A stretch of 64,000 nucleotides of DNA from Candidatus Kapaibacterium sp. (GTDB lineage Bacteria; Bacteroidota; Ignavibacteria; Palsa-1295), in NCBI GenBank assembly GCA_038210275.1, contig JBBQWV010000002.1, positions 134,141-198,140 on the forward strand, in the 5' to 3' direction. The notes under the pieces were generated by a model, which worked only from the letters and a program-made list of their open reading frames with translations, was not told the origin of the DNA and made no database searches. Shown here piece by piece: positions 1,850 to 47,094 of this stretch. The translations under genes were made by a program, and so were the position numbers. The stretch's first letter is position 1, and every line of letters starts with the position of its first letter.

Positions 1850-1961
1850 GTCATTGCGAGGAGTTGCTTGCGAACGACGTGGCAATCTAAAAACTTAAAC
1901 GTTGATTCTACATTTAATATTTTAGATTGCTTCGTCGGGCTAAAGCCTTTCTCGCAATGAC
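1850..1961. repeat. palindromic MITE/REP-like element, family A copy 1 (112 nt)
   Basis: Terminal inverted repeats GTCATTGCGAG...CTCGCAATGAC with a nested inverted repeat GCAATCTAAAA...TTTTAGATTGC. Near-identical copy at 25368..25477. Sits between convergent genes. Confidence 0.8.
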
Positions 1962-1976
1962 ATTATTATATACTAA

Positions 1977-2963
1977 TCACTTGCCGCTAGTAACAAAAAT
2001 TTCTTCTCCGATCGTCCAATTCTTCAAAGGTTCATCAATTTGAGTCATCTGCACTTTCAAGCCATCGGCAGTGCGGATAAGCTTGCAGAAATGATGTCGG
2101 CGTTCAGGACCATCGCGAAACAGGTCTTGCTTTACTGAATTCTTTTTCGGTGCTTCAAGCCGCTGGCTTGGACCTGCACCGCCGGAGACGATAAAATCTT
2201 TTCCACTGATCTTAAAATGCTCATACGAATGACAATGCCCGCTAAAGAAAAGCTTTGCTTTAGGCGTATGAATATACGAAGGAACAAAGTATTTCTGAAC
2301 ATCTTTATCGTCGTTGACAACGCTGCTATTGGTAAATGGCGGCTGATGACAACAAACGATAATTATCGCAACCGAAGAATCTGCTTGCATTTTTTTCATT
2401 TCACCTAGATACCATTTCCTCTCGTCAGTAATATCATCTTTCGATAAATTACTAAAATTCGAATTCAACGTGATGATGCCAATATCCTTCCATTTTTTTG
2501 AATACCATAGCTGCTCCTTAATCTGTGGGAAGCGAGAGAAATACTGAGTAAAGGCAACATTGTGGTTTCCGAAATACTCATGATTGCCGGGAAGCGGAAA
2601 GATCGGAATACCTTTGGTGCGTATTGGCTTTGCAAGGTCATCAAAATCCTGCCATGAGTTAAGCGAACTGCCCGGAAATGTAAAATCTCCTAAAACCAAA
2701 ACAAAGGATGGATCTTCTTCTGAGATCTTTTTTAACAAGGCACGGACAGCATTCTTATTATCTTCACGACCAATGAGAATTTCCGGTGTACCCCGAAGTT
2801 GAACATCACCGATAAAAATAAAACTGGATGCTGTATCAATGCGGGTTGGAGAGCCTGAATAGATAGGGATTTGCGAGCTTGAAAGCCCTGGGGTAAAAGA
2901 AAGTAGAACAAATAAGAGAACAGTTTTTCTCAAAATTTTTCTATAATATTTATGCCTGTTCAA
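1977..2963 (-). CDS. calcineurin-like metallophosphoesterase (secreted)
   Basis: Motifs GDVQ..G, LVLGDFTFPG, GNHEY, SGHCHSYEH are typical of the MPP superfamily. N-terminal signal peptide. Confidence 0.7.
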   Translation of the reverse strand: MNRHKYYRKILRKTVLLFVLLSFTPGLSSSQIPIYSGSPTRIDTASSFIFIGDVQLRGTPEILIGREDNKNAVRALLKKISEEDPSFVLVLGDFTFPGSSLNSWQDFDDLAKPIRTKGIPIFPLPGNHEYFGNHNVAFTQYFSRFPQIKEQLWYSKKWKDIGIITLNSNFSNLSKDDITDERKWYLGEMKKMQADSSVAIIIVCCHQPPFTNSSVVNDDKDVQKYFVPSYIHTPKAKLFFSGHCHSYEHFKISGKDFIVSGGAGPSQRLEAPKKNSVKQDLFRDGPERRHHFCKLIRTADGLKVQMTQIDEPLKNWTIGEEIFVTSGK

Positions 2964-3183
2964 TTCTCTTTATCTCCGGTGCTTCGAACATGATCGCTCG
3001 CTCTATTCCGGCACGAAGCGTCATTAATTTTAGCGGGCACGTTGCACATGCTCCTAAGAAGCGAACATCAACTATGCCTGCACTTTCGTCAATGCTGACG
3101 AGTTCGATGTCACCGCCATCGACTTTCAGAAACGGTCGGCAGAATTCAAGCGCTTTTTCTATGCGTTGGCGAAGATCATTCAT
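2950..3183 (-). CDS. NifU-like Fe-S cluster scaffold domain protein (Nfu-type)
   Basis: 77 aa with GGDIELVSID...VRFLGACATCPLKLMTLRAGIE matching the Nfu/NifU C-terminal CxxC fold. Overlaps the 3' end of the phosphoesterase gene. Confidence 0.6.
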   Translation of the reverse strand: MNDLRQRIEKALEFCRPFLKVDGGDIELVSIDESAGIVDVRFLGACATCPLKLMTLRAGIERAIMFEAPEIKRIEQA

Positions 3184-4310
3184 TAATTCTCAGTGCCAAG
3201 TAGAATTTCAACTGGCTTTTGGTTCGGAGCCAAATTCGCAATACTCACCTGCTGCGCCATTGCCTGTGCAATGTCTCTGAATGAATGCGCTGCCTGCGTC
3301 TCCGGACCGCTAACGACGATAGGCGAACCATCATCGCTTCCGACACGAACCGATGTCTCAAGAGGTAGCTCACCCAAGAAAGGTACTCCGAATTCGGTCG
3401 CTGCTTTCGCCGCTCCGCCATGCGAAAAGATTTCTTCGCGATGATGACAAGCCGAGCAAATAAAATAACTCATGTTCTCGATGATTCCAAGAACAGGCAC
3501 GTGTACTTTCTCGAACATACGAACTGCTTTCCGTGCATCAGCAAGAGCCACATCTTGCGGAGTAGTGACAATCACTGCTCCGGTAAGAGGAATAGTTTGC
3601 ACAAGAGTAAGCTGAATATCCCCTGTTCCGGGAGGAAGATCAAAGATCAGATAATCGAGTTCACCCCAAAGCACATCCGACATAAATTGCTTCAATGCAC
3701 CTGATGCCATGGGACCGCGCCATACGACTGCGGTATTTGGATCAACGAGGAATCCAATCGACATCACCTTCACTCCGTGCGCTTCAAGAGGGATCATCAT
3801 CGCATGACCATTCACTTGTTGTGCCTCAGGTTTTGAATATTCCAAGCCGAACATTAGTGGAATGCTCGGGCCATAAATATCGGCATCAAGTAACCCGACC
3901 TTCGCCCCATCTTTTGCGAGTGCAACAGCGAGATTCGCTGCAACGGTTGACTTCCCTACTCCACCTTTGCCGGAAGCAACAGCGATGGTGTTCCGAACAC
4001 CTAAAAGTGCAGTCGGTTTATTTACCCCTTGCTGCATTGCCACGTTCGATGTCATCGCAACTTTTACATTACCTTCACCGGCAATTTTTTCTACTGTAGT
4101 CCGCGCTTCGAGTTCAAGTTTATCTTTGAGCGGGCATGAGGGTGTAGTAAGTTCAAATGTAAAAGATACTTGATCGCCTGCAATCTTTATATTCTTTATC
4201 ATCCCAAGCGAGACGACATCTTTATGAAGATCGGGGTCAATGACGGCGCGAAGAGCATCAAGCACTTCCGCTTCAGTAAGAGTAGAACTATTTTTTGAAA
4301 AGAATCCCAT
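3183..4310 (-). CDS. apbC: Fe-S cluster carrier ATPase Mrp/ApbC (N-terminal DUF59 plus ParA-type P-loop)
   Basis: Walker A SGKGGVGKSTVAANLA, CxxC near C-terminus (CSAC), N-terminal MIP18/DUF59-like domain. Adjacent to the Nfu gene. Confidence 0.85.
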   Translation of the reverse strand: MGFFSKNSSTLTEAEVLDALRAVIDPDLHKDVVSLGMIKNIKIAGDQVSFTFELTTPSCPLKDKLELEARTTVEKIAGEGNVKVAMTSNVAMQQGVNKPTALLGVRNTIAVASGKGGVGKSTVAANLAVALAKDGAKVGLLDADIYGPSIPLMFGLEYSKPEAQQVNGHAMMIPLEAHGVKVMSIGFLVDPNTAVVWRGPMASGALKQFMSDVLWGELDYLIFDLPPGTGDIQLTLVQTIPLTGAVIVTTPQDVALADARKAVRMFEKVHVPVLGIIENMSYFICSACHHREEIFSHGGAAKAATEFGVPFLGELPLETSVRVGSDDGSPIVVSGPETQAAHSFRDIAQAMAQQVSIANLAPNQKPVEILLGTEN

Positions 4311-4368
4311 TGAAATTTATTTTATGTGGCGCTAAAACAGAATGAGAGGAGCATGGGTTCGGATTCCT

Positions 4369-5058
4369 CTACTCTCTGGCATTATGCGCCACAATGCTAT
4401 CGGCAAATGCATGGATTTCGCGCTTTAATGCGGGCGTCAGGTATTTCGCATTTTTTGATTGCATTTTATTAATGTAACCTGCAATATCATCCGTTGGTAT
4501 ATTATTTTGAGAGATGCTATTAACCCAATATTTGAATGACCATTTATATTGCGGCATTCGGAGCTTCTGATAAAATTCATCAACGAATTGCATACTGTAA
4601 TGTACAGCATATGATGGCAGCAGTTCGGGATCAGTAGCCCAAGGCTCACCAAGTCGATAAAATCTCAGAAAGAGAAAATAATAGAATGGACGTGTCGTAT
4701 CGTTTTGCGTAAGAAGACTATCACATAAATAGTAGGTCTCCGAATTATCAACGCTCGGAATAAATCGAAGCAAATAAAAATTCTTGGCAGTTTGCGATAC
4801 ATCACTTCTATTGAGGTAAAATGAAACCGGTCTACCTTCGATAAGAGAATCCGATAGAGGAAATATTTTCCTCATCTCATCGCTTATACCGACGCTATCA
4901 GTATTCACTTTACCTGTATCAAGTTCACTAAGCGGCACATCCTGATCCGTCCACCGAGCGCTATCGGGCATGAACAGCTTCTTCTTTCCGCCGCCGCAGC
5001 TTTCCATCACCGTTAACAGGATAATAAGTGTATAAATAATTAGAGTAGCTCTATTCAT
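4369..5058 (-). CDS. hypothetical lipoprotein
   Basis: Signal peptide plus lipobox (LTVMESCGGG). No recognised catalytic motifs. Confidence 0.4.
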   Translation of the reverse strand: MNRATLIIYTLIILLTVMESCGGGKKKLFMPDSARWTDQDVPLSELDTGKVNTDSVGISDEMRKIFPLSDSLIEGRPVSFYLNRSDVSQTAKNFYLLRFIPSVDNSETYYLCDSLLTQNDTTRPFYYFLFLRFYRLGEPWATDPELLPSYAVHYSMQFVDEFYQKLRMPQYKWSFKYWVNSISQNNIPTDDIAGYINKMQSKNAKYLTPALKREIHAFADSIVAHNARE

Positions 5059-5132
5059 AGATTACTTTCAACAGCCAACCGCTATTCTTCATTCAACAGG
5101 AATTTTCTTCCCAATCATTCGTTAAATACTCC

Positions 5133-6760
5133 ATGCTCAGGAATGTGGTTTTGGTCATCGCCTTCATGGTTGCAGTTCTCTCAACTGCAAGCGATCTATG
5201 TGCGCAATTATTAATCGTGCCTCCCGCTCGGTTATCGCCTGATAATTTTTTCGATGCCGAAGGAGTATCAATCGTCATCAATCCTTCCAATTCGTCTCAG
5301 ATTGCTGCGGGATCAAACGTAAATTATTATTATTTCTCGACCGACTTAGGACATTCATGGCAAGCGAATGCTTTGAATCCCACGTTCGGTGATGGTGGTG
5401 ATCCCTCGCTTACCTCCGATTCAAAAGGAAATTTCTATTATGCACATCTATCCAGCGAAGTTAATGGCGTAGGATATAATCAAGATAGGATCGTTATTCA
5501 GAAATCAACAGATGGGGGAAAAACATATTCACCCGGGACATTCACCGGACATGACCGTTCTCCAAAACAGCAATTCAAGGAATGGATCACTTGCGATAAT
5601 TCATCTTCCACGCCATACAAAGATAATCTTTATCTTTCTTGGACAGAGTTTGATTCTTATCAAAGTCATTTTCCGCAATTTGATAGCACGAGAATTCTTT
5701 TCTCGGGTTCAACCGATGCAGGCGAAACATGGTCTGATGCCGTGACTGTAAGCGATAAAGAAGGTGATACCATTGATAGCACCAACTCCGTTAATGGCTC
5801 AAGATGTATCACCGGTCCTAACGGCGAAATTTATGTTACGTGGGAAGGACCCGACGGATTGCTATTCGATAAATCAACCGACGGCGGAAAATCTTTTACA
5901 AAAGATAAACTCCTTGAGCAACTTGTGCCGGGCTGGAGGTTTGATATCAAGGGTATTTATCGCGCCAATGGATTTGCTACTCCGCTTTGTGATAACGGTA
6001 ATTCGAAACATCGCGGAAATCTTTATGTACTTTTTTCCGATAAACGCAACGGACCGGATGATTGTGATATTTTTCTGCTTCGCTCAACGAATGGCGGTGA
6101 TTCATGGAGTTCACCTGTTCGTGTGAATGACGATACGTCGCATCTCGAACAATTTTTTCCATCAGCAGCGATTGACGAAACTACCGGATTCATCTATGCA
6201 GTCTTTTATGATCGCAGGGATCATAAAGGTACGAATCTCACAGAAGTATATCTTGCCAGATCTATTGATGGGGGCAGAGTTTTCAAAATTTCAGATTACA
6301 TTCAGCTCCTTTCAATCCAAACAACAAGATTTACATCGGTGATTATACTCATATCGCTGCCCATAATACATTAGTCTATCCGACTTGGACGGACATACAT
6401 ACAAATAACGATGGAGTATCTTATTCTGAAAGTATTTGGATATGCAGAGTTATTGATACCGGCGCGTTTAATTTAGATGTCCCGACTCCGATGGATAGGA
6501 AGCAATCTTTCTCCTTACACGTCGTTCCAAATCCTGCACGATCGGAGATTCAAATCCAATTCAGTCATCCGCTCGAAAGGAATTCTTCCATTCAAATAAC
6601 CGACGTAGTAGGAAGAACTCTCGTAAACAGCATTGAAGGAGAGTACGACAATAAAGACAGAATTACTTATGATATAAGCAACCTTCCAAGCGGCATCTAC
6701 TATTGTTTAGTACAATACGGAACAGAGCACGCCATTCAAAAAATAATCGTGTCACATTAA
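5133..6760 (+). pseudogene. BNR/Asp-box repeat (sialidase-like) T9SS cargo protein, frameshifted at a G5 tract (frames 5133..6374 and about 6269..6760)
   Basis: The upstream frame carries at least four S.D.G.(T/S)(W/F) BNR motifs (STDGGKTY, STDAGETW, STDGGKSF, STNGGDSW). It reads ...ARSIDGG then runs out of frame. The other frame continues ...QSFQNFRLHSAPFNPNNKIYIGDYTHIAAHN... and ends in a T9SS C-terminal domain (GIYYCLVQYGTEHAIQKIIVSH). Joining them at GGGGG (about 6270..6274) recreates a perfect SIDGGQSF BNR motif. Confidence 0.55.
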
Positions 6761-6774: not shown

Positions 6775-6829
6775 AAAAGTCAAAGATCAAAACGTGATTT
6801 CTATTTTTGACTTTTAGCTTTTGACTTTT
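6775..6829. terminator. A/T-rich inverted repeat (AAAAGTCAAAG...CTTTGACTTTT) between convergent genes; terminator-like, overlapping the last codons of the minus-strand CDS
   Basis: About 10-bp arms with flanking A/T runs. Located between the stop of the 5133..6760 gene and the stop of 6801..7256. Confidence 0.4.
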
Positions 6830-7256
6830 GAATTCTCTTAATGCTTTTTCCCATCCGTTCTTTATATTCTTTCGGAGGGTATTCAACCTTTGCCATCTCC
6901 TTCACAAATTTCTCGGCAATATCAAGCGGCATCTGTACTACGTCCTTAAAATTAATGCAGCCCTTTTGGAATTTTGCTTTTGGCATAAGCTTTTCGAATT
7001 TCTCGCGCAAGCCGCTTCCACCAAAACCTTTTGAACTGCCATACATTACCATCGAATGGAATGACATGTGCTCCTTCACCGAGGAAAGTGCATACTTCAT
7101 GATATCGCCTTGCATATACATAAGCATTTCCTTCCCCATCATACTGCTCACGACTTCTTTAACAAGCGGGTCAGATTTTAAAATAAGCTCGCGCAATTTG
7201 GATAAGATCGCCTTGCGATCTTCGGGCAGAGAATCAAGATATTCTTTAGGTGTCAT
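6801..7256 (-). CDS. hypothetical protein, DUF1801 (YdhG-like) resemblance
   Basis: N-terminus MTPKEYLDSLPEDRKAILSKLRELI resembles DUF1801 proteins. Lys-rich C-terminus is encoded partly by the hairpin repeat. Confidence 0.35.
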   Translation of the reverse strand: MTPKEYLDSLPEDRKAILSKLRELILKSDPLVKEVVSSMMGKEMLMYMQGDIMKYALSSVKEHMSFHSMVMYGSSKGFGGSGLREKFEKLMPKAKFQKGCINFKDVVQMPLDIAEKFVKEMAKVEYPPKEYKERMGKSIKRIQKSKAKSQK

Positions 7257-8887: not shown

Positions 8888-11848
8888 TTACCCCACCTGT
8901 ATCTTCAATTTCTCCATCTGCACCCTAAAGCTCTCGAGTTTTTCCTTTTCTTTGATAATGATATGCTCCGGAGCACGGCTGACGAAGTTGTCATCGCTGA
9001 GTTTTGCGTTTAGACTTTCGTATTGCTTTACAATGCGCTCAAGCTCTTTGCGGAGACGGTCTTTTTCTTTCTTGGTATCTTCTTCGCTTTGCGCTTCCTG
9101 TTTAATAAAGATCTGGCCTCTTCCGGCAAGTAATTCAGCAGCATACTCTTTTGAGGACAGCTCTCTCATTGTGTCATTGCGAGGAATCTGCGCAGCAGAC
9201 GACGCGGCAATCTCAAAATTCTCGGTACTATTAGACATTTTAGATTGCTTCGCTGCGCTCGCAATGACGTCCCCAAATGTGTCTTGTTCGATTATGAGTG
9301 ATGAAGCTTTACATATCTTTTCAATGATATTTCGCGAAGCTTCTGTGAGAATTAAATCTTCTTGAGTCTTCAAACGAATAATAAACTCTGCCGACTTGCT
9401 CGGAACAAGTTTTGCATTCGCACGCAAGAGTCTTGCGGCTTCAATAATTTTTTGTATAAAAGCGAATTCCTCTTCCGCTTCATCATCTATCTTTCCTTCA
9501 TCGGCTGTGATGTAGTCATCTCTGCCAATAAGCATATTTTCCGGATTACCCGTTAAGCCATGCCAAAGCTCTTCGGTGACAAATGGCATGATTGGATGGA
9601 TCATTCGGAGAATGCCTTCGAGAATTTCCACAGCAAGCGGAGTTGATTCGGGCTGTAGCTTTACGATCTCCAAATACCAATCGCAATAATCTTTCCAGAT
9701 GAAATCGTAAAGGTATTTTGTAACGTCATTAATGAGATAGGCGTCGAAAGCTTTCTTCACATCTCGCGCAGTTCTATTCGCACGAGAGAGAATCCATTTA
9801 TCAGCGAGGGTAGACGGTGGTTTTGCAGAGAAGCCAGCCTTCTCCAGTGGGACGGACTTTAGTCCATCCGTCTCACGGACTGAAGTCCGTGCCACTGAAT
9901 TGTTATATTCTGTATCTTCAGATTCAAACTTCGGCTCGGGATGAGTTGATTGATATTCATCACGCTTCATTAATATAAAGCGTGTTGCATTATATAATTT
10001 ATTTGCAAAATTCCTGCCTTGTTCACAGCTTTCTTCTCCGAAACGAACATCTTGTCCGAGCGGTGCCAGATAGAGCAATGTAAAACGAACAGCATCCGTA
10101 CCATATTTACGAACGAGATCAATCGGATCGGGCGAGTTGCCGAGCGACTTACTCATTTTCCTTCCCTGCTGGTCACGCAAGATATTATGGAAATACACAT
10201 CGGTGAAAGGAATCAGATCTTCTAACTTTTCACGTTTCGAACCATCGGGCATCTCCATACCTTGCATGAATTCGATGCCGCCCATGATCATTCGCGCAAC
10301 CCAGAAGAAAATAATATCGGGCGCAGTTGAAAGCAGATTGCCGGGATAAAATAATTGCAGATCTTTTGTATTCTCTGGCCAACCGAATGTCGCAAAGGGC
10401 CAGAGCCACGATGAGAACCATGTATCAACGACATCGGGATCTTGACGGAGTTCGCCTTTGTATCCAGCGGCATCGGCTTTAGCTCTTGCTTCGGCATCAT
10501 TACGTCCGACAAATATTTCTCCATCAACTCCATACCAAGCTGGAATGCGCTGCCCCCACCAAAGCTGGCGTGAGATACACCAATCACGAATCCCTGTCAT
10601 CCAATGACGATAGGTATTGATCCAGCGTTCTGGATGAAAATGAATAAGTCCATCTTCAACAACTTTTAGTGCAGGCTCGGCAAGCGGCTTCATCGAAACG
10701 AACCACTGATCAGATAGATATGGCTCGATCATCTCGCCGCCGCGTTCAGAATAGCCTACAGAATGAGTATATTCATCAATCTTCTCAATAAGCCCCATCT
10801 CTTCCAATTCCGCAACGATCTTCTTTCGTGCAACAAAGCGGTCCAGTCCTGCAAATTTTCCACCGAGTTCGTTGATATGGGCTTTTGTATCCATGACATT
10901 GATTTGTGGCAAATCATGTCGCTTTCCGATCTCGAAATCGTTTGGGTCATGGGCAGGAGTAATCTTCACACATCCTGTTCCAAATTCTTTATCGACGTAG
11001 TCATCGGCAATGATCGGGATTTCCCTATCCATAAATGGAAGCTGAAGTTTTCTGCCGATGAGTTTTATGTATCGTTCATCAGTAGGATTGACAGCAACGG
11101 CAACGTCGCCAAGCATTGTCTCAGGGCGCGTTGTTGCAATGACAATAAATTCTGGTTCGCCGGATTTCCTATCGATAAGCGGATAACGGAAATGATAAAG
11201 CTTGCCTTTCGTCTCTTTGTAATTTACTTCTTCGTCGCTAAGAGCAGACTGTGCAACAGGGGACCAATTAATGATACGCTTGCCTTTATAGATCAGCCCT
11301 TTTTCATAAAGTCTGACAAATGCTTCAACGACAGCTTTCTCATAGCTCGCATCCATCGTGAAAGTGAAACGGCGCCAATCTGGTGAGCAGCCGAGAGCAC
11401 GAAGTTGCTTCTCTATAAAATCAGAATGCTCATGCTTCCACTTCCAAACTTCGTCAATAAATTTTTCACGACCCAAATCGTGACGAGTCTTTCCCTCTTC
11501 TTTTAATTTCTTCTCAACTTTCGTCTGCGTTGCAATTCCCGCATGATCGGTGCCCGGCATCCACAGGGCTTCATGCCCAAGCATCCGGTGATAGCGGATA
11601 TAGGTATCCTGAATGGCATTATTGAGCGCATGACCCATGTGCAGAATGCCCGTCACATTCGGCGGCGGCATACAGACTACGAATGGCGGCTTGTCATTGG
11701 CGCGGCGTCCGGTGGGGTCCTGCGGTACTTCATCGGGGCGATTGGCTTCAAAAAGCTTCTCCGCTTCCCAACGCTCGTACCACTGCTGTTCAACATCCTG
11801 CGGCGCATACGCCTTCGGTAATTCCCTTTTCTCTATTTCTGACATCAA
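8888..11848 (-). CDS. valS: valine--tRNA ligase (986 aa)
   Basis: Class I HIGH (ILHMGHALNN) and KMSKS motifs. Editing and anticodon-binding regions align with E. coli ValRS (…NKLYNATRFILM…DKWIL…CDWYLE). C-terminal coiled coil. Confidence 0.95.
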   Translation of the reverse strand: MMSEIEKRELPKAYAPQDVEQQWYERWEAEKLFEANRPDEVPQDPTGRRANDKPPFVVCMPPPNVTGILHMGHALNNAIQDTYIRYHRMLGHEALWMPGTDHAGIATQTKVEKKLKEEGKTRHDLGREKFIDEVWKWKHEHSDFIEKQLRALGCSPDWRRFTFTMDASYEKAVVEAFVRLYEKGLIYKGKRIINWSPVAQSALSDEEVNYKETKGKLYHFRYPLIDRKSGEPEFIVIATTRPETMLGDVAVAVNPTDERYIKLIGRKLQLPFMDREIPIIADDYVDKEFGTGCVKITPAHDPNDFEIGKRHDLPQINVMDTKAHINELGGKFAGLDRFVARKKIVAELEEMGLIEKIDEYTHSVGYSERGGEMIEPYLSDQWFVSMKPLAEPALKVVEDGLIHFHPERWINTYRHWMTGIRDWCISRQLWWGQRIPAWYGVDGEIFVGRNDAEARAKADAAGYKGELRQDPDVVDTWFSSWLWPFATFGWPENTKDLQLFYPGNLLSTAPDIIFFWVARMIMGGIEFMQGMEMPDGSKREKLEDLIPFTDVYFHNILRDQQGRKMSKSLGNSPDPIDLVRKYGTDAVRFTLLYLAPLGQDVRFGEESCEQGRNFANKLYNATRFILMKRDEYQSTHPEPKFESEDTEYNNSVARTSVRETDGLKSVPLEKAGFSAKPPSTLADKWILSRANRTARDVKKAFDAYLINDVTKYLYDFIWKDYCDWYLEIVKLQPESTPLAVEILEGILRMIHPIMPFVTEELWHGLTGNPENMLIGRDDYITADEGKIDDEAEEEFAFIQKIIEAARLLRANAKLVPSKSAEFIIRLKTQEDLILTEASRNIIEKICKASSLIIEQDTFGDVIASAAKQSKMSNSTENFEIAASSAAQIPRNDTMRELSSKEYAAELLAGRGQIFIKQEAQSEEDTKKEKDRLRKELERIVKQYESLNAKLSDDNFVSRAPEHIIIKEKEKLESFRVQMEKLKIQVG
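9173..9268. repeat. family A palindromic element, copy 2, 96 nt, inside the valS ORF and in frame
   Basis: GTCATTGCGAGG...GGCAATCTCAAAA...TTTTAGATTGC...CTCGCAATGAC. Length 96 is 32 codons with no stop in the valS frame. Encodes ...DVIASAAKQSKMSNSTENFEIAASSAAQIPRNDTM... just before the ValRS C-terminal coiled coil. Confidence 0.75.
9845..9897. repeat. family B palindromic element, copy 1, inside the valS ORF
   Basis: CAGTGGGACGGACTTTAGTCC..ACGGACTGAAGTCCGTGCCACTG. Matches the B copies flanking lexA. Encodes ...SVARTSVRETDGLKSVPLEKAGF... within a segment absent from E. coli ValRS at the equivalent position. Confidence 0.65.
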
Positions 11849-22443: not shown

Positions 22444-22507
22444 CAAGTCAAAAGTCAAAACTTCAAAATAAAATGAGACTCCTCTTATTCTTGACTTGTA
22501 TTTTTTT
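22444..22507 (+). terminator. hairpin CAAGTCAA-N40-TTGACTTG followed by a T8 run, in a 420-nt intergenic region
   Basis: 8-bp stem and long loop followed by TATTTTTTT on the plus strand. There is no annotated plus-strand gene upstream, so it may be a stand-alone small transcript. Confidence 0.3.
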
Positions 22508-22783
22508 ACTTCCCCTGAGCCATAGTTAACTCCTTATAAACCAAACAACTAATATTAACAAGTTGACCGATCAGAGTAAAAATCCCCTAAACGCCCGACC
22601 GCCTAAAACCGATACCCAATTCCCCGGGTGAGCAACTGTAACTCCATATAATTCATGAATATCGCTATGCACATTTGCACTCTTTCTTCCCCCCTAAACT
22701 TTTAGCTTTGAAGTTTAAGCTTGCGTGTCTTTGGCGTGTAGGTGCCCATCATAATGGCTACCAATATACACAATATTTTTTCT

Positions 22784-23962
22784 CTACTGCAAAAGTATCT
22801 TTTTTACCACTACCGAATTTGTGGTTACAAATTTGGCATAATATATTCCGGGCGCTTGCTTCGAAAGATCGATGGTGAAATTTGACGAATGCGGGTTTGT
22901 AAGTTCTAATACTTTCTCCCCAAGAATGTTTGCGATGGTAACTTGGGATGTATTTTCGGGTGCACCATATATAGTTATTACTCCATTGGTCGGATTTGGA
23001 AAAAGCGAAATATTCAACGGGTTTGCAATATATTTTTGCTTCACATCCAGCCCAGCAAGTGGGTGTTTCCAGATACCATCTTTGTCAGTACCTGCAAAGA
23101 AATAGGAGGTGCTTACTCCAAATGTTGTGACACTAATTGAATCTGTCAGACCAGTGTTAAATTTCATCCAACTTGTACCACTATCGGAAGAAAGAAAAAT
23201 TCCGGCATCTGTCCCTGCAAAAAGATTCTTGCCTATCACCGCCAAGGCATAGATAGTGTGAACCTCATTAAAATCTCCTAACATACTGCATACTTTCCAA
23301 GTTATTCCATTGTCCGTTGAATGACAAACTTGATTACTCCTTCCCACAAAAAGATCGGATCCATTTGAGATAATACATTTAAAAATCCCTATGAAGCCAA
23401 GACGTTTCCAACTCGAACCAAAATCGGTCGAAACCAATATACTATCAACCGAAGATGTAGTTGCGAATAGACTCGTACCATTTACAGCAAAACGATTAAA
23501 ATCATTCGTCTGAAAATGAAAATCTAACTCAGTCCAACTCATGCCACTGTCGGATGAAACAAAACTATCATATCCTCCAGCAATAATTTTTGTTCCGATG
23601 ACTGCAAGACAGTGTATATTCCTCATATATTCAACTGTAGTTGTCCAAGTTTTTCCGGTGTCAGATGAGAGGAAGAGTCCTTTCGTTGTGCCTGTAATGA
23701 TAGTATTTCCAATTTTTGTAAAACAGAAGATAGGAATGGTATCAAAAAAACTGTTCCCTATGTCCTTCCAACTTACACCGCTATTGGTTGAAAGCAAAAT
23801 TCCATGATTGCTCGTCCCGGCATAGATATTATCACCATCGACAAAAAAGCAAGTCTCCCAAGCATTATGTGGCGCAGTTGTCTGAACCCATTGGCTCCTA
23901 ACATTTGAAGCCATGAACGTGATCTGGAGAAGGAATGCGATGAGTATTAATTTCTGTTTCAT
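22784..23962 (-). CDS. BNR-repeat (sortilin/Ycf48-like beta-propeller) protein with T9SS C-terminal sorting domain
   Basis: Six S.D.G.(S/T)W motifs (STNSGVSWK, SSDTGKTWT, SSDSGMSWT, STDFGSSWK, STDNGITWK, SSDSGTSWM). C-terminus PGIYYAKFVTTNSVVVKKILLQ. Probable start at MKQKLILIAF (signal peptide). Confidence 0.65.
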   Translation of the reverse strand: MKQKLILIAFLLQITFMASNVRSQWVQTTAPHNAWETCFFVDGDNIYAGTSNHGILLSTNSGVSWKDIGNSFFDTIPIFCFTKIGNTIITGTTKGLFLSSDTGKTWTTTVEYMRNIHCLAVIGTKIIAGGYDSFVSSDSGMSWTELDFHFQTNDFNRFAVNGTSLFATTSSVDSILVSTDFGSSWKRLGFIGIFKCIISNGSDLFVGRSNQVCHSTDNGITWKVCSMLGDFNEVHTIYALAVIGKNLFAGTDAGIFLSSDSGTSWMKFNTGLTDSISVTTFGVSTSYFFAGTDKDGIWKHPLAGLDVKQKYIANPLNISLFPNPTNGVITIYGAPENTSQVTIANILGEKVLELTNPHSSNFTIDLSKQAPGIYYAKFVTTNSVVVKKILLQ

Positions 23963-24065
23963 AATTTTTAATCCCGAATCATTTTTATTGTTATAATATA
24001 GGGATTGATTTGGTAATGTTCTTGAGCCTATAAAGAACTTATTAAATCTGAAATAGTTACACTTT

Positions 24066-24091
24066 ACGGACGGACTAAAGTCCGTCCCACT
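24066..24091. repeat. family B palindromic element, half copy
   Basis: ACGGACGGACTAAAGTCCGTCCCACT, in the divergent promoter region between the BNR gene and lexA. Confidence 0.6.
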
Positions 24092-24212
24092 CACAATACC
24101 AAACTTCGAGAGTCACGCAAAACTTCGACTTATCTCCCAACCCTAAAAATTTCGGATTTTACGCGGAGGCGAAAAAGATTGCTTATATTAGTACGTGCTC
24201 TTATGGGCACCT

Positions 24213-24238
24213 ATGCTATGAGAAATGCCGCTCATAGC
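24213..24238 (+). promoter_or_regulatory. inverted repeat TGCTATGAG-N8-CTCATAGCA about 50 bp upstream of lexA; candidate LexA operator (autoregulation)
   Basis: Perfect 9-bp inverted repeat with an 8-bp spacer, located where SOS boxes are usually found. The motif differs from the E. coli (CTGT-N8-ACAG) and Cheo-box consensus, so the assignment is inference only. Confidence 0.3.
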
Positions 24239-24284
24239 ACATAATAAGGCATCTAAATGATTGATCTATAGAAAGATAACGACG

Positions 24285-24959
24285 ATGTACGCAGAACCAA
24301 AATACGATACTATCGCAATCCGTGATTCCCTTCCGCTCCAACAGGCGAGGGTGCTCGACTATGTCGAGGAGTTCATTGACATCTCCGGCTACCCCCCGAC
24401 CATAGCCGAAATAACCGAATTTCTGGGAGTCTCTTCGACCTTCGGAGTTCGCAAACATATCGAAGCGCTGACCAAAAAAGGCTTCATCGTTCGCGGCGGT
24501 CCCGGACTCTCGCGTTCGATCATGGTGGCGAATAATCACCGCGCAAACTCGGTACCGATCGTCGGCAGAGTCACAGCCGGTGCGCCCATCCTTGCCGTTG
24601 AGCATATCGAAGGCTGGCTGGCATTTCAGCCTATCAAAGATCCACGCAAAATGTTTGCGCTTAAAGTGCAGGGCGAAAGCATGAAGGATAAAGGCATCAT
24701 GGATGGCGACTACGTGATCTGCCGCCAACAGGATGAAGCATCGAACGGCGAGATCATCGTTGCCTTGCTTGATGACTCGGCAACAGTAAAAACTTTCCGC
24801 AAGTACGGCAAGCGTTACGAACTCGAACCGGCGAACGAGCTATTCAAGCCCATCCCCATTACCGAAGACAGCGGCTTCAAAGTGCTTGGGAAAGTTACGA
24901 GCATCTATCGTATGATAGATGATAGGAAGCCGGGGCTATTGCAATTGAAGTATAACTAA
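24285..24959 (+). CDS. lexA: LexA repressor (S24 peptidase)
   Basis: N-terminal winged helix (LPLQQARVLDYVEEFIDISGYPPTIAEI), cleavage region and S24 catalytic domain with VQGESMKD (Ser nucleophile) and the downstream Lys motif. ATG at 24285, 24 nt downstream of the TTG of ORF 24261, is the more plausible start. Confidence 0.85.
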   Translation: MYAEPKYDTIAIRDSLPLQQARVLDYVEEFIDISGYPPTIAEITEFLGVSSTFGVRKHIEALTKKGFIVRGGPGLSRSIMVANNHRANSVPIVGRVTAGAPILAVEHIEGWLAFQPIKDPRKMFALKVQGESMKDKGIMDGDYVICRQQDEASNGEIIVALLDDSATVKTFRKYGKRYELEPANELFKPIPITEDSGFKVLGKVTSIYRMIDDRKPGLLQLKYN

Positions 24960-24965
24960 TTTCTG

Positions 24966-25015
24966 TAGTGGGGCGGACTTCAGTCCGTCCGAACGGACTA
25001 AAGTCCGTTCCACTA
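24966..25015. repeat. family B palindromic element, full copy, 6 nt downstream of the lexA stop
   Basis: TAGTGGGGCGGACTTCAGTCCGTCCGAACGGACTAAAGTCCGTCCCACTA. The two ACGGACT.AAGTCCGT hairpin units lie within a larger palindrome. Confidence 0.7.
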
Positions 25016-25058
25016 CTACCAGAAATAACAAAACAATTTTAGAATAATCAGAACAACC

Positions 25059-25340
25059 ATGCAAACATTAACCACTACACTTCAAGCGCCGCGCAGAGCA
25101 GAAGTTTATACTGCACCAATGCCGCAGCAGAAGGAAATACAAGTTGCCGAAGAGCAGGAGCTATCAGTTCGGCAGATCAGCCATTATATCGGCAAAACAA
25201 AATTCTGCGAGACGGGATACAGCACGACCACCTACGGCAGGATCGGCTTCACCAAAGTCGAAGCTGAGCACGTAACAGCAGATACGCTATTGCAAGCGAG
25301 ATTGGATATATTGTGTGATAAGCTTCGCGCACGCTATTAA
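25059..25340 (+). CDS. hypothetical small protein (93 aa) co-oriented downstream of lexA
   Basis: ORF between repeat B3 and repeat A3. No recognisable domain. Coding status unverified. Confidence 0.3.
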   Translation: MQTLTTTLQAPRRAEVYTAPMPQQKEIQVAEEQELSVRQISHYIGKTKFCETGYSTTTYGRIGFTKVEAEHVTADTLLQARLDILCDKLRARY

Positions 25341-25367
25341 CGTGCATCGTGAAGACTTTAAAACAAT

Positions 25368-25477
25368 GTCATCGCGAAGAGGGCGCAGCCAGACGTGGCG
25401 ATCTAAAAATTTGAGGGCGTGTGTAACGATTAAGATTTTAGATTGCCACGAAAGGCTAAAGCCTTTCTCGCAATGAC
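25368..25477. repeat. family A palindromic element, copy 3 (110 nt)
   Basis: Termini identical to copy 1 and a shared GGC(A/G)ATCTAAAAA...ATTTTAGATTGC core. Between convergent genes. Confidence 0.8.
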
Positions 25478-25520
25478 ATTCATAAAAGAATATTCATCCA
25501 TCCGCCTTCATCCTTACCCG

Positions 25521-26108
25521 TTAGTGTTTATGTACGGTGCTAATATAATGATACTGTGGCTCCCAGTCGTCACTTGCCGATGGCAACAGATCGAAGAGAT
25601 GCCAGATGGAGCAGTAATCATCTCCGGGACCGAAGAAATCTTTCGTAACGTGCGTGATCGTGCCATCCGCTTCTTTTCTGAATATCGAAACGCCGGGCAT
25701 CGGATCGTCTTTTTCATTTGCAAATCCCATGTCGCGTTTGAAGGTTGTGCCTTCAGTTGAATACATTCTGAAATTCCATCCGCGCTCCATCGCAAATTTT
25801 CTCTGTATCTCATAGTTATCCGGTGAAGTGAGAACAAATGCCATTCGGCTTTCGAGATGCTTCGTAAAACCGATAAATCCATCAGCCCAAAGTGTACAGT
25901 AGCGGCATGATCTTCCCATGTTATGCACGAGCATCAGTTCGTTCGATGAGCCGAACATCTCCGAGAGCATTGTCTTCTCGCCGGATGATCCTGTGAAGGA
26001 ATAATCTTTTACCGTTTCAGCAGGAATTTTACGGCGCACTTCTGCGACCTTTGCGCGAAGCTTCATTAAGTCATCACTAAGTTGGAAGAGTTCTTGTTCG
26101 GCTGTCAT
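25521..26108 (-). CDS. DUF899-family thioredoxin-like protein
   Basis: GRSCRYCTLWADG CxxC region and the overall 195-aa architecture are typical of DUF899. Confidence 0.5.
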   Translation of the reverse strand: MTAEQELFQLSDDLMKLRAKVAEVRRKIPAETVKDYSFTGSSGEKTMLSEMFGSSNELMLVHNMGRSCRYCTLWADGFIGFTKHLESRMAFVLTSPDNYEIQRKFAMERGWNFRMYSTEGTTFKRDMGFANEKDDPMPGVSIFRKEADGTITHVTKDFFGPGDDYCSIWHLFDLLPSASDDWEPQYHYISTVHKH

Positions 26109-33813: not shown

Positions 33814-34149
33814 CTATTCGCTTTCGAGAAAGGATATAATATTACGGAAAACGTTAATAAAGCGCTCAGGCTTCATCGAGCCTGCTTTATTAATGATAAG
33901 ATTCTGGTGGAGCGTAAATAGTCTGTTTGGTCTGATGTAACTTTCTTTCAAGAGTCCTCCATCAAAGAAATCTACAGTCGATAATGGAATTGAGAAATTA
34001 TCGTTCTTTAGTTTACTGGTAATTTGGCAAAGAATTAGATCTTCATTATCTATAACTTTAAGGACTAATGCAGGACGACGCTTTGCTTCTCTGAGGTCGG
34101 TAAAGGGAAAGTTGACGACGACAATATCACCTCTCATAAATCTTTCCAT
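33814..34149 (-). CDS. mazF: MazF/PemK-family type II toxin (endoribonuclease)
   Basis: RGDIVVVNFPFTDLREAKRRPALVLKV matches the PemK/MazF signature. Overlaps the upstream small ORF by 16 nt. Confidence 0.7.
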   Translation of the reverse strand: MERFMRGDIVVVNFPFTDLREAKRRPALVLKVIDNEDLILCQITSKLKNDNFSIPLSTVDFFDGGLLKESYIRPNRLFTLHQNLIINKAGSMKPERFINVFRNIISFLESE

Positions 34150-36088: not shown

Positions 36089-37798
36089 TTAATGCTGCAC
36101 AATGAATGGGATCTGATTTTTTTTCCCATCTTGGTTGACATACATAAAATAATTTCCGGAAGGTAGTTTGTCAATATGAATTGATATATTATGATCATCA
36201 ATAATTTCGAACTGACATTGAAATTTTCTTCCGAGCATATCAAAGAATTCTGGTTTTGAGAACCTCCCATTGCTATTGGAATGAATCGTCACTTGTGAAT
36301 TTGCAGGGTTCGGGTAAATGTTGAAACTCGGATTATTTGCTTCCGATACTGGAATGGTCTCTGAATTAGAACTACCACTAAGCTTGAAGACCCAAGCATT
36401 TTTACCCGATGAATCCTGATGTTGCCCCAAGAGATCACCGTCATGAGAATTTGAAGATCCGGCGATGGCGAAACCTCCGTCAGAGGTTTTTACAATAGAA
36501 AATGCCCCATCGTCGCCTGTTCCACCAAGGCATTTCTGCCATTGAATGTTGCCTGAAGAACTAAGCTTAATTATCCATGCATCGGACCCACCATGGTTAC
36601 CTGCTATATATTCATCTGTTGATCTTGTGAAGCCCGCTACTGCATACCCGCTATCCGGTGTTTGTATAATACTTGATATTTCCTCTGCATTTATCCCCCC
36701 CAAGCATTTCTGCCATTGGATAGCACCTAATGAAGTGAGTTTAACAAACCATGCGTCGGAATTGCCATGATTACCTGCAACATCTCCATCAATACAATTT
36801 GTTGTTCCTGCGACGGCAAATCCCCCATCAACAGTTTTGATGAGACTATATAACTCTGTATAACCGGAACCTCCGAGGCACTTCTGCCAAATTATTTTTC
36901 CCGTATCGTTCGTTTTTACAACCCAACCGTCAGGATTTTTATAAGATTTGGCATGAAATCCCACAACATCGCCATCAGATGAAGTAGTAGATCCTGCGAT
37001 AACATATCCATGATCATAATCTTCTACGATCGAGTGACCATAGTCTTGGTCTGTTCCGCCCAGACATTTTTGCCATTTAATCCTTCCGGATGAATCAAGA
37101 TGAACGATCCAGACATCAGAAAAATAATCTGGATAGATGCCCGAATGAAATCCCATAACATCTCCATCAAAAGAAGTCGTGTATCCAACGAAAGTATATC
37201 CTCCTTCTTTACCGGAGTTTTCAATAATCGAAGTTGCATACTCGGAATATTCTCCACCAATACATTTCTGCCATTCTATAATCCCTGAATTCGTCAGTTT
37301 TACTATCCATGCGTCCGAACAAGGATATTCGATCGAAGGACTTACTCCTCCATGCTGCCCTTTAACATCTCCATCAAATGAAGTTGTGTAGCCAGAGGCT
37401 ATATACCCACCATCACGTGTGTGAATAATGCATGAAAATGCTTCATCACCCGATCCTCCAAGACATTTCTGCCATTCGATAATACCCAAAGAATCAAATT
37501 TTGCGATCCAGGCATCAATGCCTTCGACTCCACGAACACCGTCTTTGCCATGGTTATCAATGAAATCTCCATCGGAAGAATACGTACCACCTACAGCAAT
37601 ATACCCGCCATCAGAAGTCTGAAGAATGGAACTTGCCCAATCATCATGAGTACCACCAAGAACTTCCTGCCATTGAATTCCGGGAACCATCTGTGAATAA
37701 ACTGCGCAAGGCGAAATGATAAAAATAACAATACACAATTGCGCAATTCGAATTTTGCAATTCAGGATCGCGTCTTTTAATTGTTCATTCATTGCCAT
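36089..37798 (-). CDS. tandem-repeat (beta-propeller-type, about 47-aa unit x8-9) secreted protein with T9SS C-terminal domain
   Basis: Repeating unit ...GGT.DD.A.SI..T.DGGY..AG.T.S.DGD..G.HG.SDAWI.KL...G.I.WQKC.GG... C-terminus PSGNYFMYVNQDGKKNQIPFIVQH. Confidence 0.6.
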   Translation of the reverse strand: MAMNEQLKDAILNCKIRIAQLCIVIFIISPCAVYSQMVPGIQWQEVLGGTHDDWASSILQTSDGGYIAVGGTYSSDGDFIDNHGKDGVRGVEGIDAWIAKFDSLGIIEWQKCLGGSGDEAFSCIIHTRDGGYIASGYTTSFDGDVKGQHGGVSPSIEYPCSDAWIVKLTNSGIIEWQKCIGGEYSEYATSIIENSGKEGGYTFVGYTTSFDGDVMGFHSGIYPDYFSDVWIVHLDSSGRIKWQKCLGGTDQDYGHSIVEDYDHGYVIAGSTTSSDGDVVGFHAKSYKNPDGWVVKTNDTGKIIWQKCLGGSGYTELYSLIKTVDGGFAVAGTTNCIDGDVAGNHGNSDAWFVKLTSLGAIQWQKCLGGINAEEISSIIQTPDSGYAVAGFTRSTDEYIAGNHGGSDAWIIKLSSSGNIQWQKCLGGTGDDGAFSIVKTSDGGFAIAGSSNSHDGDLLGQHQDSSGKNAWVFKLSGSSNSETIPVSEANNPSFNIYPNPANSQVTIHSNSNGRFSKPEFFDMLGRKFQCQFEIIDDHNISIHIDKLPSGNYFMYVNQDGKKNQIPFIVQH

Positions 37799-43089: not shown

Positions 43090-43108
43090 TTATTTTATAA
43101 ATAACTAC

Positions 43109-43681: not shown

Positions 43682-43696
43682 TATAGATAGTATCTC

Positions 43697-44413: not shown

Positions 44414-44523
44414 GTACAGTACAACAAATTTATTTCTGCAAAATTACGGCTTTTTTCGCGCTTACGAGAATTATATTCGAAAAAGACGTATTTTTGTACG
44501 ATTTCACAAACACAAAAATCACC

Positions 44524-45624: not shown

Positions 45625-45644
45625 TCAATCTTATATCGGATCAG

Positions 45645-45673
45645 AAAGGCGGAGAGATCTCCGCCTTTTTTTA
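45645..45673 (+). terminator. rho-independent terminator (GGCGGAGAGATCTCCGCC then T7)
   Basis: Perfect 8-bp GC-rich stem flanked by AAA and TTTTTTT, between convergent genes. Confidence 0.6.
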
Positions 45674-45677
45674 TGCC

Positions 45678-47033
45678 CTAAGTTCTCTCAACCATTGGCA
45701 CATGGATCTCGACCGGCTCTAACCCGCCTTTACGCAAGGCATGGACTTTGTTTACTTCTCGGTGAGGACGTTCTGCCGAAACTTTGGCGGCAAACTCTTC
45801 TGGGAATCGCTGAATAGTAAATTTTACGGGCCATGCAGCTGCTTCGCCTAAAGCGCAGATCGTTCTGCCTTCAATATTTTTTGCAACATCTTCAAGTAGT
45901 GCAACATCTGCCGTCGAGCCTTCACCTGCATTGATGCGTTTTAAAACTTTATGAAGCCAGCCTGTTCCCTCTCGGCATGGAGTACACTGTCCGCAGGATT
46001 CATGCCAATAAAATTTTGAAATGCGCTGTAAGACTTTTACAATATCGGTATCTTCATCCATCACCATGATGCCACCTGTTCCGATGGATGAACCTACAGC
46101 CTTCAAACTTTCTGCATCCATCTTCACACCTTCAAGCGCATCACCACGCAACGGTGGCATTGATGATCCACCCGGAATTACCATCTTGATCTTTTTATTT
46201 CCCGGCACTCCTCCGCCATATTTATAGATCATATCAGTCAACAAAGTACCAGATGGTACTTCATAAACTCCTGGACGATTCACATGACCACTTACTCCAA
46301 GAAGTAAAGTACCCGGATGCTTCGCCTCCCCAATCTTAGAATATGCTTCAGCTCCCATCTTGAGTATTGGCGGAATGTTGGCGATAGTCTCGACATTATT
46401 GATCGTTGTCGGGTATCCCCAAAGCCCGTAGTTCGCTGGAAACGGCGGCTTGACTCGAGGATAACCGCGCTGACCTTCGAGCGAATTCATCAACGCTGAT
46501 TCTTCACCAACGATATATGCTCCGGCACCCTTGTGAACAGTTATATCAACAGAATAAGGAACGCCATCACCGGAAGCAGGAAAAGTCTGCTTCATCTTTT
46601 CGCCGATGAAACCGTGGGAATAAGCATCTGCAACAGCTTTTTCAACCATCTTCACCCAAGCCGCATATTCGCCGCGAATATAAACGTAAGCATGATTGAC
46701 CTGCATTGCATACGCAGCAAGCAACATCCCTTCGATCATCTGATGCGGATTGAACTCGAATATCTGCCGATCTTTAAATGATCCCGGCTCAGATTCATCG
46801 CCATTGATGAGCAAGAATTTTTTACGGTCAGTGCCTTTTGGCATGAACGTCCATTTTAATCCCGTAGGAAATGCAGCGCCGCCTCTTCCACGAAGACCGG
46901 ATTTTTTGACTTCTTCAGTAACCTCTTCAGGCTTCATCGAAAATGCTTTGCGCATCACCTCGCCATAGCCGCCATTTTTAATATAGACGTCAATGTCGCC
47001 GAGATTTGGAATATTTGGTAATACTAAGTTCAC
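45678..47033 (-). CDS. nuoF: NADH-quinone oxidoreductase subunit F (51-kDa, FMN/NADH-binding)
   Basis: GLRGRGGAAFPTGLKW FMN/NADH motif and C-terminal 4Fe-4S CGQCTPCREG. Confidence 0.9.
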   Translation of the reverse strand: MNLVLPNIPNLGDIDVYIKNGGYGEVMRKAFSMKPEEVTEEVKKSGLRGRGGAAFPTGLKWTFMPKGTDRKKFLLINGDESEPGSFKDRQIFEFNPHQMIEGMLLAAYAMQVNHAYVYIRGEYAAWVKMVEKAVADAYSHGFIGEKMKQTFPASGDGVPYSVDITVHKGAGAYIVGEESALMNSLEGQRGYPRVKPPFPANYGLWGYPTTINNVETIANIPPILKMGAEAYSKIGEAKHPGTLLLGVSGHVNRPGVYEVPSGTLLTDMIYKYGGGVPGNKKIKMVIPGGSSMPPLRGDALEGVKMDAESLKAVGSSIGTGGIMVMDEDTDIVKVLQRISKFYWHESCGQCTPCREGTGWLHKVLKRINAGEGSTADVALLEDVAKNIEGRTICALGEAAAWPVKFTIQRFPEEFAAKVSAERPHREVNKVHALRKGGLEPVEIHVPMVERT

Positions 47034-47056
47034 TGTTTGTTTTGTGTTACTTTCAT

Positions 47057-47094
47057 GTCATCGCGAGGAGTCCGCCGCGGCGAATTGCAATGAC
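47057..47094. repeat. family A-related short hairpin (terminal repeats only) between nuoE and nuoF
   Basis: GTCATCGCGAGGAGTCCGCCGCGGCGAATTGCAATGAC shares both A-family termini but lacks the internal region. Confidence 0.5.

Follow-up and report, generated by a model that had tools for sequence, protein, structure and literature searches.

Results

Seven hairpin repeats in the window, two of them inside valS

The DNA analysed here, a stretch of 64,000 nt (64 kb) from contig JBBQWV010000002.1 of Candidatus Kapaibacterium sp. (hereafter the window, with positions counted from its first letter), carries seven copies of two small palindromic repeat families, four of family A and three of family B. 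Two of these copies, A2 and B1, lie in frame inside valS, the gene for valyl-tRNA synthetase, and are tolerated in linkers of the encoded protein. [quoted passage not shown] All seven copies were located where it had placed them, far above chance, and the hairpin-dimer architecture described below bears out the REP/BIME-like interpretation. The observation is therefore confirmed and its REP-like interpretation was right, but the claim of novelty was not; moreover, the in-frame occupancy of valS by 2 of the 7 copies contradicts an almost exclusively intergenic distribution and is the main point that had been missed.

The window's valS (8888–11848, minus strand) is a complete open reading frame (ORF) of 986 aa that remains open, without a stop, through both repeats. 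Pfam assigns residues 22–603 to tRNA-synt_1, 683–822 to Anticodon_1 and 924–982 to Val_tRNA-synt_C, and both inserts fall between domains. A2 (9173–9268, minus strand) is a heterodimer that combines a long arm with a short one (CGCAGCGAA), and its 96 nt amount to exactly 32 codons, aa 861–892; the encoded peptide, V861–D892, reads VIASAAKQSKMSNSTENFEIAASSAAQIPRND (VIASAAKQSK...AQIPRND) and is located in the stretch that joins the anticodon-binding domain to the C-terminal coiled-coil arm. B1 (9845–9897, minus strand) is a REP dimer encoding aa 651–668 (SVARTSVRETDGLKSVPL) in the linker between the catalytic and anticodon-binding domains.

Comparison with orthologues speaks for mobility and a recent insertion. 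The best ValS relatives, 74–84% identical, come from metagenome-assembled genomes labelled Candidatus Kapabacteria, Ignavibacteriota or Bacteroidota; an exact look-up of the window's ValS returned no record. When the 16 ValS sequences are aligned, the A2 region stands out as a clean insertion of 36 columns that all 15 orthologues (51–84% identity) lack, and blastn alignments of the window with two related contigs, L121 and L122, break at about 9165–9286 with a net gain of 108 nt in the window. The orthologue P0005, encoded on contig L121, which is syntenic with the window, has an A element of its own at a different valS site: it is 108 nt (36 codons) long, has perfect termini and is read in the same VIAS...PRND frame as A2. 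The site of this element is the blastn breakpoint of the window's B1, and the extra sequence at the shared breakpoint, 57 nt in the window (9842–9898) and 111 nt in L121 (11969–12079), is in both cases a multiple of three. A B-like peptide is found at the same linker in the orthologue P0006. The ValS linker between the catalytic and anticodon-binding domains is, by these alignments, a hot spot visited by two element classes in sister lineages. We also note that the same linker holds a different hairpin in L122 (CCCCCTCTC...GAGAGGG) and a GGGAAT-type simple repeat in a further relative, L244; most of the linker may be derived from inserted elements.

A2 is open in four of its six frames, and A1 (112 nt) and A3 (110 nt) have internal stops in most of theirs. 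Across superfamily A, copies are stop-free in 46% of frames versus 30% after shuffling of the interior, a modest bias that helps intragenic survival. In an AlphaFold2 model of ValS built from the 16 sequences, the insert blocks have a predicted local distance difference test (pLDDT) score of 33–48 as opposed to 76–89 for the flanking blocks. The model as a whole is poor (mean pLDDT 58, predicted TM-score 0.39), and so its compatibility with extruded loops at the inserts is no more than a hint.

The intergenic copies

The remaining five copies lie between genes, and no strand is assigned to them. A1 (1850–1961) is a 112-nt dimer of two long, TGTC-tagged units with the tags outward, between the convergent genes 1207–1821 (+) and 1977–2963 (−). 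A3 (25368–25477), 110 nt in length, is situated between a 93-aa ORF (25059–25340, +) and a convergent DUF899 gene (25521–26108, −). B2 (24965–25016) is a REP dimer of two abutting units, tagged GTAG and CTAC, located 6 nt after the lexA stop codon. A4 (47057–47094), a probable family A remnant of 38 nt consisting of termini only, occupies the spacer of the nuoE-nuoF operon, 10 nt past the nuoE stop and 23 nt ahead of the nuoF GTG start. B3 (24066–24091), a singleton of one REP unit, lies in the divergent region between lexA and a gene with a type IX secretion system (T9SS) tail, about 105 nt upstream of the latter's likely start at ~23962. Placement after stops or between convergent genes, as the first-pass annotation had it for the intergenic copies, is accordingly found for A1, A3, B2 and A4 but not for B3.

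How far do these copies stand out from chance? The exact 11-mer GTCATTGCGAG that bounds family A occurs five times in the window, as the inverted pairs 1850/1951 and 9173/9258 and once more at 25467; every occurrence is the end of a listed copy, and simple arithmetic (an 11-mer, both strands, 64 kb) gives an expectation of ~0.03. At up to two mismatches the 26 occurrences observed against 18.5 expected are not significant by themselves. One or two mismatches distinguish this 11-mer from its variants at the left end of A3 and at either end of A4. The family B unit ACGGACTNNAGTCCGT is found five times at up to two mismatches, where 0.07 would be expected in the window. A1, A2 and A3 form long hairpins of −52 (A1 minimum free energy −52.3), −37 and −53 kcal/mol, with z scores of −9.4, −5.0 and −8.0, and fold in this way on either strand (z −4 to −9.6); B1 (−8.2/−6.3), B2 (−7.9/−8.7) and B3 (−5.6) are also strong by z score.

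A4 is weak when taken alone, as its fold has a z score of −0.7 and it is missed by a family A hidden Markov model (HMM; nhmmer). We retain it as probable because L121 has a comparable short A form (39 nt, 5967–6005) and because the nuoE-nuoF spacer is 71 nt in the window, A4 included, versus 9 nt in the relative L244. Lying between the nuoE stop and the nuoF GTG start (47033–47105), A4 could influence nuoF translation or mRNA processing. The same HMM scores A2 at E = 8e-21 and finds no further A copies in the window. At gathering score, Rfam reports only tRNAs in the window and in contigs L121, L128 and L158, and no family that matches the repeats. With four A and three B copies per 64 kb, the earlier expectation of hundreds genome-wide is only an extrapolation, if a reasonable one; it would correspond to roughly 200 A and 160 B copies, with a wide Poisson range from tens to about 500.

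Architecture and distribution of family A

Family A is a tag-outward inverted dimer, similar to a REPIN (REP doublet forming a hairpin), of a REP-like unit tagged with (C/T)GTC. The unit consists of the (C/T)GTC tag, ATTGCGAG, a variable segment, GCAAT and a C(C/T)A tail. The arms in the window parse as GTCATTGCGAG, an inner segment, GCAAT and CTA or CTC, and the same parse holds for 252 arms from other phyla; the tail after GCAAT is CCA in 107 of 219 arms, CTC in 49, CCC in 18 and CTA in 6. The inner segment is of two kinds, short (CGAAGCGAA-like) or long, the latter often GAG, a mini-hairpin and CGACGAA. With interiors of 9–25 nt (for example, CGAAGCGAA or GAGCGAAGCGACGAA), only the 5 bp of ATTGC and GCAAT pair canonically. 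The base before GTC is T at most ends in the window. Among 126 copies from other genomes, the outermost flanking base is, with few exceptions, a pyrimidine (C or T) to the left and a purine (G or A) to the right, from which it follows that the tag is (C/T)GTC; the two bases are complementary in 98 of the 126, so this first flanking position is part of the palindrome and not a duplicated target. Direct-repeat flanks of 1–8 nt are at chance level in these 126 copies. There is, therefore, no target-site duplication, and the earlier description as MITE-like, taken strictly, does not hold.

Alignment of eight copies of the Kapabacteria/Ignavibacteriota type reveals an invariant outer stem of 11–13 bp, an inner stem of 16 bp and a variable apex, together with a small side hairpin in the right arm that is kept by compensatory changes. 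This side hairpin is CGGACTAAAGTCC, identical to the family B core, in a copy on contig L128 (11693–11803) and GGCTAAAGCC in A1 and A3 (1934–1949 and 25448–25463 of the window). It may be a B-like module nested in A, or it may have arisen by convergence.

Scanning one genome per species with the pattern GTCATTGCGAG-N60-90-CTCGCAATGAC, we found A-type dimers with the same termini and the inner GCAATC/GATTGC motif in at least 120 genome stretches from about ten phyla. Among the matches listed, the proteobacterial hosts are Alpha-, Beta- and Gammaproteobacteria, including Rickettsiales, Legionellales and many Bradyrhizobium; the others belong to Bacteroidota, Ignavibacteriota, Patescibacteria, Chloroflexota, Planctomycetota, Desulfobacterota, Clostridia, Zixibacteria and Margulisbacteria. 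In IMG/VR, A-type dimers are present in 111 viral contig stretches (L245–L355) and B-type elements in none. ORFs near the viral A-type dimers resemble structural genes of alphaproteobacterial prophages or gene transfer agents (GTAs). When ORFs within 1.5 kb of 231 A-type loci were clustered all against all, the only neighbour clusters were prophage- or GTA-like structural genes and spurious ORFs of high G+C content.

Searches of NCBIfam and Pfam at E values up to 10 returned no model matching the peptides encoded by the elements of the window, L121, Rickettsiales or Bradyrhizobium; the domain models for Rickettsia palindromic elements (RPEs) in these databases likewise gave no match. String searches of the literature with the DNA termini and typical peptides yielded chance primer matches or nothing. 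A candidate longer element bounded by A termini (L014, 1847–2520) was rejected as a chance match, at one mismatch, inside ordinary genes. Two papers considered as precedents were also set aside: the repeats in a study of Bradyrhizobium small ORFs and REPs are different ones (Br-REP1/2), its "nucleotide-conserved sORF" being unrelated, and a study of Coxiella QMITEs is tangential only.

Family B and its link to RayT

The family B unit is a hairpin, AGTGG-nn-CGGACTTYAGTCCG-nn, with a 9-bp stem and an AGTGG head, found in the window as inverted dimers and one singleton. The tags in the window are GTAG and CTAC in B2, with GTAG preceding the head, CCAG in B1 and TGAG in B3. A metagenome scan with the pattern AGTGG-NN-CGGACTTYAGTCCG matched at least 120 stretches, and many of the matches listed are plus/minus pairs 35–38 nt apart, that is, inverted dimers. 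The pattern leaves two 3′ stem positions unconstrained, and these pair with the NN positions in 94 of 109 distinct units (shuffle mean 38, maximum 55), using seven different pair combinations.

Two contigs of ~58–60% G+C and acidobacteria-like character, L133 (1142–2010) and L187 (6295–7006), join B-type REPs to a gene for a RayT-type tyrosine transposase. Each region contains a 230-aa ORF with NHVH, WQ and YIENNP motifs. Three B-type REPs lie upstream of the ORF, one of them GTAGTGGCGCGGACTTTAGTCCGCG; another follows it directly and shares its TAG stop, and yet another is inside it and encodes ARTEVRAT. The match of the 230-aa protein to Pfam Y1_Tnp is weak, and its match to NCBIfam REP_Tyr_transpos (E = 2e-17) falls short of the equivalog cut-off; homologues of the protein bear the name "REP element-mobilizing transposase RayT". 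These motifs, REP insertions within the transposase gene, and abundance in Cyanobacteria and Bacteroidetes characterize subclass 2.4 (group 4) of the TnpAREP proteins (Quentin et al. 2018, PMC6006769). The named sources of the top 120 RayT homologues are acidobacterial, and none is traceable to the host lineage. Family B thus has the layout of GTAG-type REP dimers and is RayT-associated elsewhere, and the novelty first claimed for it is not supported.

Related contigs

L128 and L158, from another metagenome (43.5% G+C), contain A elements of the window type (GCAATCTAAAA...TTTTAGATTGC) together with B elements of the window type (GGGACGGACT), at a density of about one element per 7–15 kb that is similar to that of the window. 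The valS-anchored relatives L122 and L244, on the other hand, have neither A nor B in 35 kb. The presence and absence of copies differs between sister lineages, and the copies in the window, L128 and L158 are therefore lineage-specific expansions.

Other features of the window

The window has a G+C content of 42% and, by Pfam analysis of 50 ORFs, encodes many T9SS C-terminal sorting domains among otherwise ordinary housekeeping and cell-surface genes. In agreement with the first-pass annotation, the same Pfam scans identify no transposase among the 50 ORFs, and tblastn detects no RayT homologue.

A third kind of palindrome is represented by two long low-complexity hairpins between tRNA genes (49934–50031 and 50586–50657), with arms of (AAAGCT)n and (GGATGAA)n and folding energies of −43 and −50 kcal/mol; shorter related tracts are found at 6799–6834, 22445–22473 and 25492–25518. 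Direct repeats reported by a repeat finder at 36419–37678 and 23167–23803 are not mobile elements but internal coding repeats, with periods of ~198 nt and ~120 nt (BNR/Sortilin-like), of T9SS-tailed surface proteins. An ORF at 33814–34149 (−) encodes a MazF/PemK-type toxin (Pfam PemK_toxin, E = 1e-11). Two adjacent ORFs of 817 aa, at 51854–54307 and 54307–56760 on the minus strand, the first YfhO-like by Pfam, share DNA repeats (D9/D14) 2444 nt apart with 72–73% identity, which suggests that they are tandem paralogues. Finally, a 42-nt stretch occurs at both 22516–22557 and 49049–49090 (81% identical) and ends in TGAGCCAT, or ATGGCTCA on the minus strand. ATGGCTCA is a possible gene start, and the stretch may be a common 5′ leader of two minus-strand genes.

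Discussion

What kind of element are these repeats, and how do they spread? We propose that both families are probably REP-type hairpin elements rather than classical MITEs, spread in trans and surviving mostly downstream of genes. As judged from its sequence features, family A appears to be a local lineage, with an unusual stem, of the class that comprises the CGTC-tagged REPs and the RPE types RPE-4, -6 and -7, and family B appears to belong to the GTAG-type REP/REPIN class, which co-evolves with RayT (TnpAREP) tyrosine transposases. Copying would occur at the level of single-stranded DNA hairpins, through a trans-acting HUH/Y1 enzyme, and would leave no target-site duplication. A subclass 2.4 RayT is the most likely enzyme for family B, and family A would be served by some trans-acting Y1/HUH enzyme. 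Copies would survive mostly just downstream of genes, where their positions suggest RNA-level 3′ hairpins rather than true terminators. Inside a gene, survival would depend on a surface linker, a length that is a multiple of three and a stop-free frame, and the copy would then be translated as a peptide loop, as in valS.

Several observations weigh against this proposal. For family A, no transposase of any kind is linked to the elements in the window or in the 231 loci (up to ~15 kb), and no gene is enriched beside them among the ORFs within 1.5 kb. Its stem of 5 canonical base pairs and its interior of 9–25 nt, often with a mini-hairpin (GCGAAGC), differ from the stem of the CGTC-tagged REPs; it is the text of the publication on these REPs that sets the family A stem apart, and such a form may already be catalogued there. 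For family B, the metagenome units listed are tagged TTAG (67), ATAG (~26) or GAAG (~21) far more often than GTAG (4), the link to RayT comes from another phylum-level lineage and not from the host, and tblastn finds no RayT homologue in the window, nor in B-bearing contigs of low G+C content that total ~80 kb. For valS, the translation of the inserts is inferred rather than observed, and the compared sequences include no near-identical pair of empty and filled sites, such that the insertion junctions are approximate.

A classical MITE would be an internally deleted insertion sequence (IS) whose terminal inverted repeats are recognized by a DDE transposase encoded elsewhere. The perfect 11-bp terminal inverted repeats of family A, its length of ~100 nt and the identical 2-nt flanks (AT/AT, AT/AT and GT/GT) at three out of five A copies, counting those of the window and of the L121 valS, are what such an origin would predict. 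The flanks in the window are nonetheless inconsistent with one another, the 126 copies from other genomes have no direct-repeat flank above chance and a complementary first base, and the 231 loci contain neither a transposase between or beside copies nor a related autonomous IS. MITEs are further disfavoured by the conservation of these termini in about ten phyla, with no IS accompanying them, and by the build of the arms, each of which is a REP-like unit complete with tag and tail; we regard this origin as improbable. It is somewhat less improbable, though still unlikely, that the repeats are host-selected functional elements, namely terminators, mRNA 3′ stabilizers or protein-binding sites that are not currently mobile. 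Four intergenic copies are 6–30 nt past stops or between convergent genes, the hairpins are very stable, and two papers (PMC3733652, PMC5082802) cite roles of this kind for REPs in E. coli. Yet the intergenic copies (scan of 1500–2400 and 23900–25700) lack any hairpin with a T-tract behind it, contrary to the canonical terminator role that had been suggested for them. In addition, valS houses two of the copies and a promoter region one more, none is present at the orthologous places of close relatives, and the density differs sharply between sister lineages. An exapted stabilizing role for some copies is compatible with the REP explanation.

Could the valS segments instead be native, lineage-specific loops that resemble the repeats by chance, or assembly artefacts? 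Length alone is an ambiguous guide at the B1 site, where every orthologue has a hypervariable linker. However, B1 holds two units that match the B core, and A2 combines perfect 11-nt termini at its two ends with the inner GCAATC/GATTGC motif and a highly significant score with the family HMM. An artefact is difficult to reconcile with the uninterrupted valS ORF and with the A element in valS of L121, an independent assembly. We consider native loops or artefacts very improbable indeed. A bolder variant of the REP-type proposal would hold that the ATTGCGAG-type element is a distinct, uncatalogued, pan-bacterial hairpin element, copied by a never-identified enzyme and repeatedly captured at the ValS linker, where it alternates with RayT-type REPs. 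Consistent with this idea, the 11-nt ends and the GCAATCC motif of the element are conserved in groups that range from Patescibacteria to Proteobacteria, and in viral contigs as well; the lack of both target-site duplication and flanking transposase would then suggest a trans-acting, perhaps domesticated or host-encoded, enzyme of single-stranded DNA. We hold this variant to be doubtful; if true, ValS-type linkers would be a steady source of new peptide loops.

Returning to the REP-type explanation, three features stand out: valS is occupied twice in frame, its hot spot is shared with a sister lineage, and ATTGCGAG-type elements are distributed very widely. The explanation extends two REP superfamilies to a Kapabacteria/Ignavibacteriota-like lineage bearing T9SS, and it provides a clean case, outside Rickettsia, of "selfish" hairpin DNA in frame in an essential aminoacyl-tRNA synthetase, as well as an instance of two unrelated element classes at the same valS linker site in sister lineages. 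With a precise motif, hundreds of loci spanning phyla and viral contigs, and no target-site duplication, family A furnishes material for a question dating from 2013, namely, what mobilizes CGTC-type REPs. For annotators, the repeats account for many short ORFs that are spurious and for odd insertions seen in conserved proteins.

How do the two families compare with known systems? Like the bacterial MITEs Correia, ERIC/IRU, RUP and Nezha (PMC10969869), the repeats are small, non-coding, present in multiple copies, bounded by terminal inverted repeats and capable of lying in frame; they differ from MITEs in having no target-site duplication, no related autonomous IS in the 231 loci and arms composed of tagged REP units. 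Family B resembles the GTAG REPs and REPINs in its short G+C-rich hairpin, conserved 5′ head, covarying stem and occurrence as inverted dimers and a singleton, and it resembles TnpAREP subclass 2.4 systems in that the RayT gene of L133 and L187 is flanked by B-type REPs, one of them inside the ORF (PMC6006769). In contrast to GTAG REPs, family B has the GTAG tag only in some units, TTAG, ATAG or GAAG ahead of TGG being the usual forms, and one dimer, B1, is inside the valS reading frame.

For family A the closest relatives are the CGTC-tagged REPs, a superfamily divided into CGTC-1 to CGTC-4 by Di Nocera, De Gregorio and Rocco (2013, BMC Genomics 14:522; PMC3733652). That publication describes an unpaired CGTC tag, often TGTC and with CCTC allowed, an 8–9-bp stem beginning with two A-T pairs, a loop of 4–5 nt and a CCA tail. 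The units occur mostly as inverted (HH) dimers, where "HH" would mean tags outward to judge from the dimer peptides VIAG...GHD in the supplement; some are intragenic, including in tRNA synthetase genes, and no dedicated transposase accompanies them. The publication also equates CGTC-1 with RPE-6 and CGTC-4 with RPE-4 of Rickettsia conorii. Set against this description, family A shares the terminal (C/T)GTC tag, a stem that opens with A-T pairs (ATT...AAT), a three-nucleotide tail of CCA type and a prevalence of tag-outward inverted dimers able to form one long hairpin. It shares as well the location of copies after genes, with occasional in-frame intragenic copies, tRNA synthetase genes included, and it may share the lack of a flanking transposase, none being seen in the window and the 231 loci. 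Given this tag, stem opening, tail and layout, and the presence of the same termini across many phyla, the novelty claimed for family A is not supported. The frame GTCATTGC...GCAATCCA is common to family A and CGTC-3: the CGTC-3 peptides read VIAGLDPAI, which implies GTCATTGCC...GGCAATCCA, the outer frame of family A. Beyond the stem, family A differs in its peptides, since the intragenic ones listed in the paper do not include VIAS, ARND or LAMT, and in its wider host range, about ten phyla and viral contigs versus the five phyla given there.

Similarly, the RPEs offer a parallel for the intragenic copies. The genome paper on R. japonica (PMC3767692) reports that RPE-4, -6 and -7 all have ATGAC, the complement of the tag, that RPEs lie in the Ile- and Phe-tRNA synthetase genes and that differing RPE types can occupy one site in orthologues. 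Family A and these RPEs are alike as palindromes with ATGAC/GTCAT ends, in frame in housekeeping genes (A2 and the L121 valS element), and in lengths that range from 68 to 192 nt; the valS linker, in which different element types are found at one orthologous site, behaves as RPE sites do. RPEs are reported in solvent-exposed regions, and the valS inserts of the window lie between Pfam domains. The differences concern the host, here a free-living bacterium of the Fibrobacteres-Chlorobi-Bacteroidetes (FCB) group rather than an obligate intracellular alphaproteobacterium, and the setting, as most family A copies in the window are intergenic.

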